From: Escherichia phage EcoM2
DNA length: 64,000 bases
Reading direction: 5' to 3' (one strand)
Sequence record: PQ818761.1
Made by a program: the position numbers and the translations under genes. Below, one piece after another: positions 16,885 through 36,203 of this stretch (positions are counted from its first letter, which is position 1; each line of letters begins with the position of its first letter). Under the pieces are notes generated by a model, which worked only from the letters and a program-made list of their open reading frames with translations, made no database searches and was not told the origin of the DNA.

Positions 16885-17133
16885 ATGGCAACTATCCGCG
16901 CAACTGTCAATGCTTATGGCTGTTATACTCTGGACGTTAAATTTGATATTGGTGGAACTGATGAGTGTTTTTCATTAGTGAAGACAGTTATCAAGCAAGT
17001 TATCCCAGATTATAACCCTACTGATGACTTCTGGAAAGACGCTGTAAAAGAGGCATTAAACGACGAGCATCACTATCATTACTGGGGTGACTTGATTATC
17101 TCACTGTACTACAATAAACAAGGTTACAACTAA
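16885..17133 (+). CDS. hypothetical early protein
   Basis: 82 aa behind module-A leader; last gene of the array. Confidence 0.55.
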   Translation: MATIRATVNAYGCYTLDVKFDIGGTDECFSLVKTVIKQVIPDYNPTDDFWKDAVKEALNDEHHYHYWGDLIISLYYNKQGYN

Positions 17134-17171
17134 TCGACGCAACGGGGCTAAATAGCCCCAGATACCTTCAC

Positions 17172-17194
17172 AGCCCCATTTAAGGGGCTTTTTT
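17172..17194 (+). terminator. rho-independent terminator ending the early array
   Basis: AGCCCC-attta-AGGGGCT followed by TTTTTT; preceded by a second GGGGCT/AGCCCC hairpin. Confidence 0.65.
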
Positions 17195-17199
17195 ACGTC

Positions 17200-18750
17200 T
17201 ATGTAATAGCCCCTATACAATCCTTTCCCTTTCCTTTCCAGAATCTTACTAGACCTTAAAAGCAATAACTCTATAGCTTACTCTATAACCCCTTATCAAA
17301 TCAACTTAAATATAAGCCCATAACCCGAAAGGGAAGGGCAACCGTTTAAACGCTCTATAAAGCTCTATAACAGCCTTATCAACCTAACTTAAGGGATTGC
17401 ATTACCTCACCCTTAAAAGCCCTTTATAAAGCTTCTCAGAGCCTTAAAAGAATCTTATAAGGGTGTAAGCTTTATTATCTCGTTAGTTCCTTGTGAATAT
17501 CTAGAAAGGGCTATGAGATAGGAATCTATCGAATCCTATTGTTAGTGTCTTAAAAGTGTGTTATAGGGGCTATGAAGTTACTTCAAAGTTGCTTAAAAGT
17601 TACGTAAATGCTAGCCCCCTTAACATTTTCTTAACAATTTCTTAACAAACCCTACATAGTTATGCTTTTAAGGCACTTGTTAGCAACTTGTTAGCCCCTT
17701 GTTAAATCTCTGTTAAAACCACGTAAAAGCCTTGTAAGAGTCTTTGACATAGCCTTAAAAGCTCCTGTAAAGCTCTATAAAAAGGTGTCTGTACAGTTGG
17801 GGTGTAATTACTAGGAAGAGACTTAAAAGAGCTTACAAAGAGCTATAGAGAGCTTTTAAGAGGTATGTTTAAGGAATCACTAAGAAAGGAAAGGGAATGA
17901 TAAGAAAAGGGATAGTGACCATGTTAATAGCTTGTTAAAAAGATTAGACACTTGTTAGGAACTTGTTAATTATCTTAACAAAATAACTCTTAAAAATTAA
18001 CTTGTTAGCTCTTGTTAGTCACTGTTAAGACTCTGTAAAGACCATGTATCGACTGTTAAGAACTTGTTACAGCCTTGTTAGTTCTGTTAAGAGTCTGTTA
18101 AGACCTCTGAAGAGATGTTAAGAGCTTGAGAGAGTTGTTAAGAGATTGTTAAGGATATTTTAAAATTCTGCAAAGGGGATGTTACAGGGATGTTAAGGGC
18201 TACCAAGCAGATATACATCCTAGACAGATATTTTTCAGTTCCTTCAAAAACCCTAAAAAATGACTTGATAGCCCTATTTTATAAAAATTTTAAAAATCTG
18301 AATAATTACCTAGACAGTCTTTCAAAAATACAGGTAGAAACAGGCTTATAAGATACCTTGTTAGTACCGTGTTAGACCTTGTGAGATAAGGTCTGTAAAG
18401 ATATTCCTGTTAAGTTTGTTAAAACAGTCTATATAGAGGCTTAGTAATACCTAGTGAACACCTATAGAGGGTCATCTATGTGACATAGAGATTAAGAGGT
18501 GTATAGGAGCTTCTAAGAATGTGTAGAGAGATGGTTAAGGTGATTGTATAGGTTGTTAAGAATGCTTGTTAGAAGAGTGTTTAGAAGGGCTATACAGATG
18601 GGCTATTAAGACCACTAGATAGATACTAAGATACTATATAGTACTATATAACTGTATATAGAGAGTAAGCTTAAGAAGGGTGTTAAGAAGGATAGATATT
18701 TTATTCACATATGATGGTGACCCAGAGGTTGGGACAACCGATAAAATTTT
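17200..18750. repeat. 1.6-kb repeat-rich region with no ORF of 60 aa or more (dense GTTAAG/CTTGTTAG/CTTAAAAG/CTATAAAG words)
   Basis: No ORF of 60 aa or more in any frame on the track; tens of short related words, some in inverted orientation (CTTAAC x3 at 17618-17646); lies between convergent transcription units. Confidence 0.6.
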
Positions 18751-18756
18751 ATAAAA

Positions 18757-18783
18757 ATTAAAAAGCCCCCAATTAAGGAGGCT
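18757..18783 (-). terminator. rho-independent terminator (minus strand)
   Basis: Minus-strand read AGCCTCC-ttaatt-GGGGGCT followed by TTTTTAATTTTT. Confidence 0.5.
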
Positions 18784-18794
18784 CTTAAGATATT

Positions 18795-19388
18795 TTAAAT
18801 CAGTGTTTCCAGAACTGTCTTCAGTGATGACTTGGTTGTCTGATAAAAATGAGTAAATCCATTGTTGTTATCGAATACCTGCATCATGATATCATCTCCC
18901 TTGATTGGGTACACTCGAATATCATAGTGAAACCCATTAAAGACAGCAGAACCATTACAGAATGAACTGAAATCATCCACTGAGATATACTCTTCATGAC
19001 CTGTGATTTTTATACAAACACCTTTACTCGGTCTCTTAGGGTTGATATCTTCCATCACAGACATACTCTGTCCACCAAGAGATACCATAGTGACCACTTT
19101 ACGGTTCTTCTGTCTAAAGTACATCTTAACTTTCTGCAAAGTGTCTTCATAGAACGGATAAGACTTCTCTACAAAGATTCCTTCTAACGGCTCTTTACCA
19201 TTTTCAACTTCTCTGTTATGCCGTACTGCAAAGATAATTTGTTGGAACCAGTCAAAATTTTCTTCGGAGAGTCCTTCCCGAATATCATTCCAGTCAAGGA
19301 CTAGGTAGTTACCTTCAACTTCTTTTAAGTTATCTTTTTCCATATCTATCACACCATTATCGTAAAACTTGGTACTCTGGAACTGCAA
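18795..19388 (-). CDS. hypothetical protein
   Basis: 197-aa ORF, first of a minus-strand gene block. Confidence 0.55.
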   Translation of the reverse strand: MQFQSTKFYDNGVIDMEKDNLKEVEGNYLVLDWNDIREGLSEENFDWFQQIIFAVRHNREVENGKEPLEGIFVEKSYPFYEDTLQKVKMYFRQKNRKVVTMVSLGGQSMSVMEDINPKRPSKGVCIKITGHEEYISVDDFSSFCNGSAVFNGFHYDIRVYPIKGDDIMMQVFDNNNGFTHFYQTTKSSLKTVLETLI

Positions 19389-19824
19389 ACTTGTTGTTGT
19401 TGTTCTTCTTAATGAGGTCTTCTTCTGTTACTAAAAATGTAAGACCACACAAGTGTGTATATCTGCTATCATACTCAAATATTTTAAGTAAGTATTTACC
19501 ATCATGATAAACAGACTCTACTACACCTTTTGCAACAATCTTTCCAGTCTTGAAATCTTTAAGAGGGTATACATTACCAACTTTAGGGACTGTTTTCATC
19601 TCAGGTTCTTTTAGTTTCTCACCAACTTCTACATCACCTAGTAAGTTAGAACTTTCAAAAGCTACATATTGCATATAAGCCTCTGAGCATTCCCAGATAA
19701 AGCAACTTACAAGAACCTTAGCAGCATGTCTTGAACAATTCAGCTTATCACAAATCTCTATGTACATTTCATGTTTAGTTGAATTGTTAAGCATGGCTTT
19801 TTGAACGACTTCTTTAATTTTCAT
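19357..19824 (-). CDS. hypothetical protein
   Basis: 155-aa ORF. Confidence 0.5.
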   Translation of the reverse strand: MKIKEVVQKAMLNNSTKHEMYIEICDKLNCSRHAAKVLVSCFIWECSEAYMQYVAFESSNLLGDVEVGEKLKEPEMKTVPKVGNVYPLKDFKTGKIVAKGVVESVYHDGKYLLKIFEYDSRYTHLCGLTFLVTEEDLIKKNNNNKFAVPEYQVLR

Positions 19825-33155: not shown

Positions 33156-33230
33156 TAGTCCAAGTAGCTTATATGGTTAAAGCGCGTGTCTGAAAAACAT
33201 GAGAAGAGGGTTCAAATCCCACTGGACTAC
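33156..33230 (+). tRNA. tRNA-Phe (anticodon GAA)
   Basis: Acceptor TAGTCCA/TGGACTA; anticodon stem CGTGT/ACATG loop CTGAAAA; T-loop TTCAAAT; 3' CAA (CCA not encoded). Confidence 0.55.
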
Positions 33231-33248
33231 CAATTTCAAAGGTGCTTA

Positions 33249-33983
33249 ATGAAAGAGATGACAGAACAAGGTAAGGAGATTTTTAATCTCTTAAAAACCG
33301 GTAGAGGGTTTTCTAATCCCCTTATTACTGGTGCAGCAGTTCTAGGTGGAACCGTAGCTGCCTCTACATCACTTGTAAGCTCTATTAGCTCTGTAACAGA
33401 CCCTACAATAAAGGATAAGCTTGTTGCCGCTGGACTGACAACAGTTCTGCTTAACAGCTTTACAACGAGTCTGACAAGCACTACATCAACTACTAAGACA
33501 TTGACAGATTATGGTCAAAAGTCTATTGATGAGTTTTCCTCACGTATGCAGGTAGCAAAAGGCTACTCCAATGTTATGGGTGCAGCAGGAGAGCAAGTTG
33601 GTTGTACACCATTTAGTGGTATTATGGGTGTTGCTACAGAGTATGGTCAAAAAGCTATTGACACAATTAACAGTGCACTAGACGGTGTTAATGATGTATT
33701 AAGTGACTTACAAGATGCTATTGATAAAGGTCTTGATACTGTTTCTGATTTAGCTAACCAAGCTGTTAGTAAGATTAATGAAGGTATCTCGAAGATTACA
33801 GCTTATGCAGATGAAGTTGTGCAGATGATTGAAGAAGAAGCTGCCCTTATTGCAGAGTACCTTAAAACGAATATCAATGGGTTCTTAGCAGGTATCTTAC
33901 CAGACTGGTTTGATGATGCTTGTAAAACTGGTGTAATTGACACTATTGCAACACCAGAAATGAAGAACGCATTACAGAAATAA
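33249..33983 (+). CDS. hypothetical protein (Ser/Thr-rich N-terminal region, acidic helical C-terminus)
   Basis: ATG 33249 with AAAGG RBS; track ORF start 33186 rejected because it overlaps tRNA-Phe. Confidence 0.5.
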   Translation: MKEMTEQGKEIFNLLKTGRGFSNPLITGAAVLGGTVAASTSLVSSISSVTDPTIKDKLVAAGLTTVLLNSFTTSLTSTTSTTKTLTDYGQKSIDEFSSRMQVAKGYSNVMGAAGEQVGCTPFSGIMGVATEYGQKAIDTINSALDGVNDVLSDLQDAIDKGLDTVSDLANQAVSKINEGISKITAYADEVVQMIEEEAALIAEYLKTNINGFLAGILPDWFDDACKTGVIDTIATPEMKNALQK

Positions 33984-33984
33984 T

Positions 33985-34077
33985 GGAAGATTAACCCTAA
34001 AAGGTAAGGGAGCAGTTTGCTAAACTGCCAGTAGCTGAGAAATCGGTGTACCAGTTCAAGTCTGGTATCTTCCTCCA
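33985..34077 (+). tRNA. tRNA-Ser (anticodon GCT), class II
   Basis: Acceptor GGAAGAT/ATCTTCC; D-arm CCC-TAAAAGGTAA-GGG; anticodon stem GCAGT/ACTGC loop TTGCTAA; ~21-nt variable arm; T-arm ACCAG-TTCAAGT-CTGGT; CCA encoded. Confidence 0.6.
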
Positions 34078-34081
34078 ATTT

Positions 34082-34157
34082 GAATCCGTGACAGAAATGG
34101 CTATGTGCCTGTCTGCAAAACAGGTTTATAAGGGTTCGAGTCCCTTCGGATTCTCCA
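34082..34157 (+). tRNA. tRNA-Cys (anticodon GCA)
   Basis: Acceptor GAATCCG/CGGATTC; anticodon stem CCTGT/ACAGG loop CTGCAAA; T-arm AAGGG-TTCGAGT-CCCTT; CCA encoded. Confidence 0.6.
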
Positions 34158-34379: not shown

Positions 34380-34580
34380 ATGAGCGAGACCGTTTATAAA
34401 GAACTTTATGAAGCTAACAAAAAGCTGGAATTTATGCAGAACACTATCATGGCAATTGCAGACAGATTATCTGTAGCAACAGGTATTGATATTAAAGAGG
34501 CATCTATGGATGCACTTCTTGATGCTGTTGATGCTAAATTCGAAGTTAAGAAAGAAGAGACTGCTACAGACTCTGAATAA
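34380..34580 (+). CDS. hypothetical small acidic protein upstream of terminase
   Basis: 66 aa with GGAG RBS; position suggests packaging-associated role but size atypical for a small terminase subunit. Confidence 0.45.
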   Translation: MSETVYKELYEANKKLEFMQNTIMAIADRLSVATGIDIKEASMDALLDAVDAKFEVKKEETATDSE

Positions 34581-34601
34581 TTCTATTTGCGGAGGTGCTT
34601 A

Positions 34602-36203
34602 ATGGATTTAAATGCTGTTAAGCAGAAGCGAGTGGAAGATGTTAGGAAAGTCCTAGCTGGAGAGTTGGGGCTTTCTGATGAAGTAAAAGAAATTATCAAA
34701 TCATTCGGTAAAGACCCCTCTAAATTCCTTCCAACTCAAATTCTGACTTTATTAAGATACACACCAGACCAAGTTAGACTTATCTTCAAATTGATGACTG
34801 ATAAGAATTATGTAGCCCCTCAACCGGGTTCTCAAGAGGTGTTTTTAAATACTAATGCTGACTTGGTTTTATATGGTGGTGCTGCTGGTGCTGGTAAAAC
34901 TGCTGCATTGTTAATGGACTCTTTAAGGTTTATTGAAGACCCTAACTATAACGCTGTATATTTCCGTCGAAATACAACACAGTTACAAGGTGGTTTATGG
35001 CCTGCTGCAAAGAAACTATTTGGTAAGTTTGGTGGGGTTCCTCACGAGCAGAAGATGACTATCACATTCCCTTCTGGGGCAACTATCAAGTTTACCTACC
35101 TAGAACTTGAAAAGCACGCTGAAGGTCATCAGGGTATTGAATACTCAGCTATCTACTTTGACGAAGGTACACACTTCTCTGCTTCACAGATTTCATACCT
35201 ACAGACTCGTCTACGTTCTGGTGCTGAAGGCGATTCATACATGAAGATTTCCATGAACCCAGATAGAGACCATTTTATTTATGATTGGGTAGAACCATTC
35301 TTAGATAAAGAAGGTTATCCAGACCCTGAAAAGTGTGGTCGTATTCGTTGGTATGTAATGAATGATGGTGTTATGGTTTCTGATTGGGAAAGAGACAAGA
35401 TTCTTGAAATGTTCCCTCTTGAGATTCCTCAAACATACACCTTCATCTCTGGTACGATTGATGATAACCCAATTCTTGACTTCTTAGAACCTAAATATCG
35501 TGGTAAGTTGGAAAACAACACACCTGTAAACGTTGCAAGACTTCGTTTCGGTAACTGGAAGGCTCGTGCAGAAGGTTCAAACTATTGGCAAAGACAATGG
35601 TGTGAGATTGTTGATTCACTCCCAGAAGATGTGTTTGATGTCAGAGCATGGGACTTAGCAGCAACTTTACCATCTGAGATTAACCCTAACCCAGACTGGA
35701 CAGCGGGTGTTAAGATGGGTAAATCTAAAAAAGACGGTTGCTATTATATCATTGATGTAGTAAGATTTAGAGATAGACCCTCTGGAGTCGAAACACAAAT
35801 TAATTTGACTGCTGAAAGTGACGGTAAGCGAACTGGTATTTTTATCCCTCAAGACCCAGGCGCTGCTGGTAAATCCTATGCAACATCCCTCATCAGGAAA
35901 CTTGCCGAGAAAGGTTATCGCGCAAGAGCTAAACCAACAAATAAAGATAAAGTTACCCGCTTTGCGGGATTTTCTGCTGCTTCTGAAGCTGGACTTGTAA
36001 AAGTTTTGAGAGGCAGTTGGAACGAAGCTTACTTTCAAGAACTTGAAGGTTTTTGTGGTGATGGTAAAACTAAAGATGACCAAGTGGATGCTACCAGTGA
36101 TGCTTTCAACAGTCTTAACGAAGTTAAATTATTCAAGCCACCATCAATGGGTGCTCACACAGACTTAGTGAGAGGAAACCCATATGAGGGGCTTAGACGT
36201 TGA
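34602..36203 (+). CDS. terminase large subunit
   Basis: Walker A (GGAAGAGKT) in N-terminal ATPase region; start set at ATG 34602 behind GGAGG RBS (track start 34587 is TTG). Confidence 0.75.
   Translation: MDLNAVKQKRVEDVRKVLAGELGLSDEVKEIIKSFGKDPSKFLPTQILTLLRYTPDQVRLIFKLMTDKNYVAPQPGSQEVFLNTNADLVLYGGAAGAGKTAALLMDSLRFIEDPNYNAVYFRRNTTQLQGGLWPAAKKLFGKFGGVPHEQKMTITFPSGATIKFTYLELEKHAEGHQGIEYSAIYFDEGTHFSASQISYLQTRLRSGAEGDSYMKISMNPDRDHFIYDWVEPFLDKEGYPDPEKCGRIRWYVMNDGVMVSDWERDKILEMFPLEIPQTYTFISGTIDDNPILDFLEPKYRGKLENNTPVNVARLRFGNWKARAEGSNYWQRQWCEIVDSLPEDVFDVRAWDLAATLPSEINPNPDWTAGVKMGKSKKDGCYYIIDVVRFRDRPSGVETQINLTAESDGKRTGIFIPQDPGAAGKSYATSLIRKLAEKGYRARAKPTNKDKVTRFAGFSAASEAGLVKVLRGSWNEAYFQELEGFCGDGKTKDDQVDATSDAFNSLNEVKLFKPPSMGAHTDLVRGNPYEGLRR

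Follow-up and report, generated by a model that had tools for sequence, protein, structure and literature searches.

A repeat-rich non-coding interval of Escherichia phage EcoM2 that, by homology, holds the direct terminal repeat and is filled with 10-11-bp repeat units

The genome ends of phages of the genus Felixounavirus (Felix O1-like myoviruses of the Ounavirinae) have been reported in several studies. For UAB_Phi87, a direct terminal repeat (DTR) of 608 bp was mapped by run-off sequencing combined with time-limited Bal31 digestion (PMC4837284); the DTR of Pr103Blw was determined as 581 bp by PhageTerm (PMC8303462); and the original Felix O1 paper merely inferred "short terminal repeats", without discussing the interval considered here (PMC3185647). 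Outside T7, little is understood of how the terminases of phages with short exact DTRs locate both cut sites and copy the repeat, and the short-repeat arrays beside the T7 repeat are without established function. We analysed a 64-kb stretch of DNA from Escherichia phage EcoM2 (sequence record PQ818761.1; hereafter "the window"), in which a bare interval of 1.56 kb at about 17200-18760 (hereafter "the gap") had been singled out in an earlier note, made from the sequence by a model, as rich in short recurring words and as a candidate replication origin, protein-binding array (with packaging as one option) or source of small RNAs. The gap is homologous in sequence to the Felixounavirus DTR of UAB_Phi87 and UAB_69 (and to that inferred for Felix O1), has the same position between gene clusters and shares the same borders, with the difference that the ends of UAB_Phi87 were measured experimentally, whereas those of EcoM2 are placed by homology. 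Within the genus, the terminal repeat as such is not new; the unit arrays, border arms and cut-site modules that we report are newly described fine structure, as published Felixounavirus work gives the repeat length alone and we found no description of periodic units, a border inverted repeat or cut-site modules in the literature on Ounavirinae.

The gap matched 256 phage records at 60-95% identity, all of them Ounavirinae save one that is named as a Staphylococcus phage, and in the matching relatives the same gap lies between the same convergent gene clusters. The source phage is a Felixounavirus. The record of UAB_69 (OL656108) annotates a 618-bp "DTR" within the gap, which, when aligned, corresponds to window positions 17612-18206 (93.7% identity over 100% of the length of the UAB_69/UAB_Phi87 repeat). 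Further, the deposited genomes of ECP2307, ZX4221, CRP22, D4, I14.1, GE_vB_7A, pEP20, Ro111lw and NBSal004 start or end at most 4 nt from these borders. ZX4221 carries an exact terminal duplication (591 of 591 bp in a base-by-base check), as does the Hafnia phage SPARTY of the genus Kolesnikvirus (439 of 439 bp), and in both phages the borders correspond to window positions 17614 and 18204. By homology, the left virion end of EcoM2 would thus be cut at GCTA/GCCCCC (17614) and the right end at GGGCTACC/AAGCAG (18204), which are the border correspondences of SPARTY and ZX4221. Neither border sequence varies among 10 phages of two genera (alignment A2); together with the agreeing termini of independent records, this indicates fixed, sequence-defined cut sites. 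We conclude that the DTR and the physical chromosome ends of the source phage almost certainly lie in the gap, and that packaged DNA would start at 17614 and end at 18204, as judged from the mapped ends of relatives. The gap accordingly appears as a concatemer junction and genome-terminus region, with a DTR that would be present once per junction and at both ends of the packaged DNA. The packaging option of the earlier note was therefore well chosen, as the gap holds, by homology to mapped ends, the DTR and both terminase cut sites; the identity of the gap with the chromosome ends and the 10-11-bp periodicity described below were not stated there. We also note that the records of BPS17W1 and PC79-13 end elsewhere within the gap.

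The setting of the gap is as the earlier note had described it. No open reading frame (ORF) of at least 60 aa is present across 17134-18794: the last plus-strand ORF stops at 17133, the first minus-strand ORF occupies 18795-19388, and the sole ORFs inside this interval are of 54 aa (17101-17265, minus strand, overlapping the left terminators) and 53 aa (18190-18351, plus strand). Terminator hairpins bracket the gap on both sides, which makes the flanking transcription units convergent; on the left, the first hairpin (17144-17159) reads GGGGCT-AAAT-AGCCCC and the second (17172-17189) AGCCCC-ATTTAA-GGGGCT, followed by a T run. The absence of ORFs and the richness in stop codons, which had been taken as a feature in their own right, do not go beyond composition, the longest stop-free run in the gap being 69 codons compared with 68 ± 14 in shuffles. 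The 3-nt periodicity power was 0.32 in the gap compared with 6.2 in coding controls, and in this respect the gap behaves as non-coding DNA. The flanking ORFs matched PHROGs families of unknown function only, and no Pfam match was obtained for the flanking genes. Public records open the genomes of such phages arbitrarily and annotate tiny ORFs (25-60 aa) in the gap, as seen in UAB_69 (L001, 3915-4210), ESh19 (L013, 1092-1883) and several others; these ORFs are probably spurious because of the indel pattern described below and the absent coding signal.

The gap is the most repetitive 1.56 kb of the window. Identical pairs of 6-, 7- and 8-mers exceeded those in dinucleotide shuffles with z = 23.6, 23.4 and 23.2, respectively, and the short words listed in the earlier note are present in the gap at 6-50 times their density in the remaining window. 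Tandem Repeats Finder (TRF) gave periods of 10, 11, 20, 31 and 62 in the gap, and those of 10, 20, 31 and 62 bear out the tandem arrays that had been noticed at 18000-18150. The dominant signal is a 10-11-bp periodicity (autocorrelation z of 7.0 at lag 10 and 8.8 at lag 11) with harmonics at lags 20-22 and 31-32, and it was found separately in the left flank, the DTR and the right flank. An 11-mer position weight matrix (PWM), built from the gap by iterative refinement, located 67 non-overlapping sites in the gap, and the consensus of the degenerate 10-11-bp unit is GCTGTTAAGAG. The gap, which makes up 2.4% of the window, holds 25% of the strong PWM matches. Motif discovery had been proposed as a check both on the gap and genome-wide; across the window, the words are scattered outside the gap, no regulon-like clusters of them were found there, and a transcription-factor regulon was rejected on this ground. 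The orientation of the PWM sites is not uniform: nearly all sites at 17211-17650 lie on the minus strand, those at 17842-18700 lie on the plus strand save one, and those in the zone 17660-17830 are mixed. Because the unit orientation flips, the GC skew switches from -0.26 to +0.38 across the gap. On the top strand, the left flank array shows the words CCTTAAAAGC, CTCTATAAAG and GGGCTATGA.

A wedge model predicts the strongest intrinsic bend of the window at about 18253 (13.2 degrees per turn compared with a window mean of 3.7), which is about 50 bp outside the right cut site and within the sole part of the gap that is free of units; AT-rich tracts lie at 18270-18300. Intrinsic curvature as the cause of the periodicity was rejected, as the arrays are average in this model and the one strong bend lies outside the right border. 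In the light of these predictions, the unit periodicity is more likely to reflect a protein-binding register, or to be a by-product of unit duplication, than to reflect intrinsic bending.

Two kinds of element mark the borders of the DTR. First, the right border is spanned by a module in which TGCAAAGG and AAGCAGATATACA are separated by exactly 28 nt in 21 of the 21 IMG/VR Ounavirinae contigs that have it, and exact AAGCAGATATACA has one copy in the window. A near-copy of the right-border word (TAGCAGATATACA, 1 mismatch) lies on the minus strand at 19456-19468, inside the ORF at 19357-19824 and about 1.25 kb from the true border; allowing at most 2 mismatches, 2 such words were found in the window compared with 2.8 expected, i.e. 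the chance level. Second, each border has an inverted-repeat arm on its inner side. The three inverted CTTAAC copies reported in the earlier note are indeed present, at 17619-17646 and 11 bp apart, in the left arm, and the two arms agree at 25 of 29 positions, which none of 1000 shuffles reached; the inverted repeat of SPARTY itself agrees at 22 of 24 positions, again reached by none of 1000 shuffles. In a four-arm alignment, the arms are alike within a genus (CTTAACAAT in the window, TGCAACATT in SPARTY) and unlike between genera and, therefore, appear to co-evolve, a statement that rests on one independent comparison (the window with SPARTY); its cause may be gene conversion or, alternatively, selection for one binding factor that both arms share. 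Given the 11-bp recurrence of the words, the left arms in the two genera possibly lack positional homology. The gap cannot be aligned over its whole extent to that of Kolesnikvirus (phiEa21-4 and SPARTY), and the single BLAST match, to window 18116-18217, falls on the right border. When the Kolesnikvirus borders were aligned directly, the left border agreed at 31 of 36 positions and the right border corresponded to the module, each being reached by 0 of 1000 shuffles.

The comparison with related phages that had been called for in the earlier note revealed a gap of full length in three genera and, in a fourth, conservation of its architecture and border motifs. Between Felixounavirus and Mooglevirus, identity is 81% in the left flank, 78% in the terminal repeat and 76% in the right flank, whereas the adjacent genes have 60% (left) and 64% (right), and the right-hand flanking protein is 49-53% identical in Mooglevirus; no homologue of the flanking protein was found in Suspvirus or Kolesnikvirus. 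The gap of phiSUSP1 (Suspvirus), of 1,694 bp, is alignable end to end at 75-78% identity, with the same periodicity and the word TGTTAAGA. The gap of phiEa21-4 (Kolesnikvirus), of 1.44 kb, has the lag-11 periodicity, and TGTTAAGA is its top word (12 copies, all on the plus strand) and the top word of the Kolesnikvirus DTR. Within units, conservation is 0.88-0.94 at core positions compared with 0.73-0.82 at junction positions. With regard to length changes in alignment A2, 14 of the 26 indels of at least 5 nt cluster at 10-13 and 21-22 nt, 7 of the 26 are multiples of 3, and there are 29 single-nucleotide indel events; this pattern is consistent with units being gained and lost whole, and it excludes coding. 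Overall, the constraint on the gap is real but not exceptional.

The coordinates of the features are given in Table 1. The block at 17305-17342 is the most conserved piece of the left flank. Hairpin inserts of 25-27 nt occur at three positions of the gap across phages (alignment A2, columns ~871-897, 1635-1659 and 2280-2300), namely at 17512 in EcoM2, just outside the right repeat border in SP116, SFPB and Moogle, and in the right-hand terminator region in ESh19 and Moogle; the insert looks like a tiny mobile or repeatedly duplicated element.

Table 1. Features in and around the gap (window coordinates; +, plus strand; -, minus strand;., no strand assigned)
Feature	Position	Strand	Basis
Two terminator hairpins, end of rightward cluster	17144..17197	+	Sequence, terminator scan; terminator annotated in AYO145A
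Left flank array, ~20 degenerate 10-11-bp units	17200..17613	- (nearly all)	PWM map; lag-11 autocorrelation 0.38
38-nt block with nested hairpin GCCC-ATAA-CCC-GAAA-GGG-AA-GGGC	17305..17342	.	Invariant in 10 phages of two genera
Conserved imperfect palindrome, 26-nt arms and 6-nt centre, CACCCTTAAAAG...CTTATAAGGGTG	17408..17465	.	Inverted-repeat search; bins 17400-17500 66-74% invariant
27-nt insert with hairpin (ATGAGATAGGAATCTATCGAATCCTAT, stem GATAG/CTATC)	17512..17538	.	Present or absent among relatives; one copy in window
Direct terminal repeat, 591 bp by homology	17614..18204 (+/- 2 nt)	.	UAB_69 annotation 2 nt wider on each side
Left arm of DTR-border inverted repeat, three CTTAACA words 11 bp apart	17620..17648	-	Begins 6 nt inside left end
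Dense array of CTTGTTAG and CTGTTAAGA units, 62-nt higher-order period	17999..18200	+	TRF, PWM map
Right arm of DTR-border inverted repeat (TTGTTAAGAGATTGTTAAGGATATTTTAA)	18135..18163	+	41 nt inside right end; same offset in SPARTY
Right cut-site module TGCAAAGG-N28-AAGCAGATATACA, spanning right DTR border, cut after 18204	18169..18217	+	Contig scan, Kolesnikvirus comparison
Unit-free segment with phased A/T tracts	18220..18340	.	PWM map, wedge-model curvature
Right flank array, ~22 units (GTTAAGA, CTATAGAG, GTGTTAG)	18340..18700	+ (all)	PWM map
Terminator hairpin, end of leftward cluster	18761..18786	-	Terminator scan; terminator annotated in AYO145A and Moogle

Elsewhere in the window, a large terminase gene of the T4 type (Terminase_6N/6C) lies at 34587-36203, and its product is 97% identical to the large terminase of phiSUSP1; clustering with DTR-type terminases has been reported (PMC4837284). 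The ORFs upstream of it encode a 66-aa acidic protein, a DUF7217 protein and a DUF7338 protein. The first of these directly adjoins the large terminase gene (region 34380-36203) and is predicted to be helical; it belongs to phrog_4397, to which no function is assigned. Just upstream of the large terminase gene there are also 25 tRNA genes, all on the plus strand (28699-34157), and interspersed in this cluster are an HNH endonuclease ORF (31397-31810) and the genes for the DUF7338 (32240-32797) and DUF7217 (33186-33983) proteins.

Taking the above together, we favor the explanation that the gap is a genome-terminus region in which the arrays serve as a packaging scaffold, and we regard this explanation as a whole as somewhat probable. 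The terminase would cut at the two conserved borders, and a second copy of the repeat would be made in the course of packaging, for instance in the way proposed for T7, where strand-displacement synthesis would follow on staggered nicks. The GCTGTTAAGAG-like units, one per helical turn in the repeat and in some 400-600 bp on each side, would be bound cooperatively along one face of the DNA by a putative packaging or architectural protein, which would also mark each cut site, in mirror orientation, through the inverted arms just inside the borders; and the bent segment would assist assembly next to the right cut. For the arrays taken by themselves, a role as a protein-binding scaffold for terminus recognition or DTR duplication, which we propose from their layout, has in our estimate slightly less than an even chance.

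Several observations weigh against this explanation. The ends of the source phage are placed by homology, at 92-96% identity. The arrays reach 400-600 bp past each cut site, which is, to our knowledge, further than any known terminase recognition site. None of the three ORFs tested upstream of the large terminase gene matched a small terminase family, and no other candidate binding protein adjoining that gene was identified. For the arrays themselves, the wedge model predicts no unusual curvature. Further, the 78% identity of the gap to that of phiSUSP1 is about the genome average (80%) and below that of the structural genes (87-93%), and conservation at word-core positions (0.876) compared with other positions (0.810 and 0.851) shows a difference that 121 of 2000 permutations reach; better conservation of the unit cores is, thus, only suggestive in these alignments. 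The left flank of Kolesnikvirus lacks the minus orientation and has there a plus-strand word of its own, CTTCTAAG. Finally, in T7, insertions are tolerated at most terminal positions, including the analogous arrays (bioRxiv 10.1101/2024.10.10.617714), and, therefore, such arrays may be dispensable in the laboratory.

We considered five other explanations. One is that the arrays form a telomere-like end complex unrelated to terminase, in which a phage or host nucleoid protein would coat about 1 kb of each virion end and thereby protect the ends from exonucleases, aid the annealing of the repeats into concatemers or pace ejection. In its favor, the periodic units extend over both the terminal repeat and its neighboring sequence, which would leave 1.0-1.15 kb of array on either end of the packaged DNA; the ends lack nearby promoters for transcription-coupled entry; and a RecBCD inhibitor is suggested in the PhageMaP study to be missing from the relative Bas63. 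In the literature on Bas63 we found no essentiality data for the gap. However, no protein could be put forward for this role, Chi sites show no enrichment, and the position of the inverted arms and modules, precisely at the cut sites, speaks for cutting and not for coating; we consider a complex of this kind unlikely as the sole explanation of the arrays. It is nevertheless compatible with the packaging explanation, the two not being mutually exclusive. A form that combines both, to which we give a similarly low likelihood, is that the units are a lattice for a dedicated phage architectural protein that would form a telomere-like cap over about 1 kb of each end. Such a cap would synapse the repeat borders via the inverted arms, directing coordinated nicking and duplication of the repeat and, after ejection, would also protect or pair the ends. 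If true, the Ounavirinae would all share a device for packaging and end maintenance that differs from the known small-terminase/pac and cos systems.

It is also conceivable, though again improbable, that the flank arrays are functionless, i.e. a satellite generated by slippage, with the two cut sites and the homology of the repeat beside it as the only functional elements. The indels are mostly the gain or loss of one or two units, as slippage predicts, and, as noted above, the word cores are not significantly better conserved, the conservation of the gap equals the genome average, and the analogous arrays of T7 tolerate insertions. Against this, a size of 1.44-1.69 kb, the periodicity and long invariant blocks persist across four genera, whereas adjacent genes diverge to 60-64% or are replaced; neutral AT-rich non-coding DNA would be expected to shrink in a tightly packed lytic genome; and the orientation of the units is highly non-random.

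Slightly less likely still is a replication origin with iterons, as had been put forward in the earlier note, in which the words would bind a phage initiator and the AT-rich tracts at 18270-18300 would unwind, possibly besides the terminal function. The many short, helically phased direct repeats, the AT-rich phased tracts with the strongest predicted bend, and the retention of the full-length gap across genera, unlike the adjacent genes, all speak for an origin. However, typical iterons are a handful of copies of 17-22 bp accompanied by host initiator boxes, whereas here there are some 60-140 units of 10-11 bp that fill 1.56 kb, and DnaA boxes are not enriched (one site with 1 mismatch in the gap; 18 in the window compared with 21 expected). 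Further, there is no initiator-like gene adjacent, the flanking ORFs matching only families of unknown function, and the best-conserved elements coincide with the two mapped DNA ends.

The suggestion of the earlier note that the gap is a source of small RNAs, and that words containing TATAAA recall T4-type late promoters, fared worse, and small RNAs or a cluster of phage-specific promoters are in our view very unlikely. Several words do contain TATAAA, and 12% of 120-nt windows fold with z below -2. However, the mean folding z of the gap is -0.74, and a search with the covariance models of Rfam 15 revealed no family, the only hit being a sub-threshold match of Phe_leader to a terminator hairpin (26 bits compared with a gathering threshold of 55). 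T4-type late promoters were rejected, as their core TATAAATA is absent from the gap and has 2 copies in the window compared with 3.8 expected, and sigma-70 promoters were rejected because sigma-70-like sites in the gap are at the chance level (11 compared with 7.1 ± 2.4). Terminators on both sides point into the gap and none lies inside it, and the frequent unit-sized and 1-nt indels would break defined transcripts.

A hidden protein-coding gene with a non-standard start, a frameshift or an alternative code, which the earlier note had named as what would overturn its reading, can practically be dismissed: some GenBank records do annotate tiny ORFs (e.g. UAB69_gp027 and gp028, and three in ESh19), but the 3-nt periodicity is far below that of coding controls, ORF lengths match shuffles, the indels include many of a single nucleotide and few multiples of 3, and the 53-aa ORF at 18190-18351 is broken by a 25-nt insertion in three relatives.

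Typing, biocontrol and therapy of Salmonella and E. coli make wide use of Felix O1-type phages. The border motifs GCTA/GCCCCC and TGCAAAGG-N28-AAGCAGATATACA permit the correct orientation and annotation of such genomes; the inverted arms, unit arrays and bent segment are concrete elements for mutagenesis; and, for engineering, this 1.6-kb non-coding region should not be presumed to be a neutral insertion site.

Of the systems known from other phages, pacL/pacR of SPP1 and cosB of lambda are recognition regions for the small terminase with phased repeats and bent DNA; they span about 100-200 bp and serve headful or cos packaging with a single cut site. As in these, helically phased short repeats flank the cleavage site here, and a predicted bent segment lies beside the cut. 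Unlike in these, the cut sites are two, separated by about 590 bp, the repeats take up 1.5 kb, and the ends are exact and non-permuted; a pac site of the kind found in headful phages was rejected on account of such ends and of the missing small terminase family in the three upstream ORFs. The p6 protein of phi29 forms a regularly spaced nucleoprotein complex at the genome ends, which it recognises via periodic features and not via one strict site, and the likeness lies in a regular architectural complex over the terminal region of a linear phage genome, which for EcoM2 is a proposal. Replication of phi29 is protein-primed, its genome lacks a terminal repeat of the present kind, and its periodicity is 12 or 24 bp.

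The concatemer junction of T7, which comes closest to the gap in architecture, has the same layout, namely an array, a short exact terminal repeat with some words inside, and a second array. The T7 arrays are called SRL and SRR. In T7, the 160-bp repeat is followed by a CCTAAAG array at 175-340 with a period of 13, and a related array lies just upstream of the right repeat. The two junctions differ in several respects. First, the T7 arrays are about 170 and 140 bp long, whereas those of EcoM2 are about 410 and 550 bp, and the words fill the repeat itself in EcoM2, whereas the T7 repeat has only some. Second, T7 has the promoters A0, phiOL and phiOR near the junction, whereas in the gap promoter-like sites are at the chance level and terminators bar the flanking transcripts. 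Third, T7 is a podovirus, and the source phage is an unrelated myovirus with a T4-type large terminase. The PWM of the Felix-type units gave 0 matches at the left end of T7 and 1 weak match (score 7.3) at the right end, which is at or below the shuffle mean of about 1, and on these counts, together with the difference in period (13 bp in T7 compared with 10-11 bp here), homology of the T7 and Felix words was rejected. The right-end array of T7 (L016, 407-545) holds CCTATAGAGTC and CCTAAAGAGGGTC, which are superficially like CCTATAGAGGGTC at window 18459-18475; this is probably a coincidence, because the Felix PWM fails to match the T7 arrays overall. As judged from these comparisons, the likeness of the EcoM2 gap to the T7 concatemer junction is one of design, not of descent.

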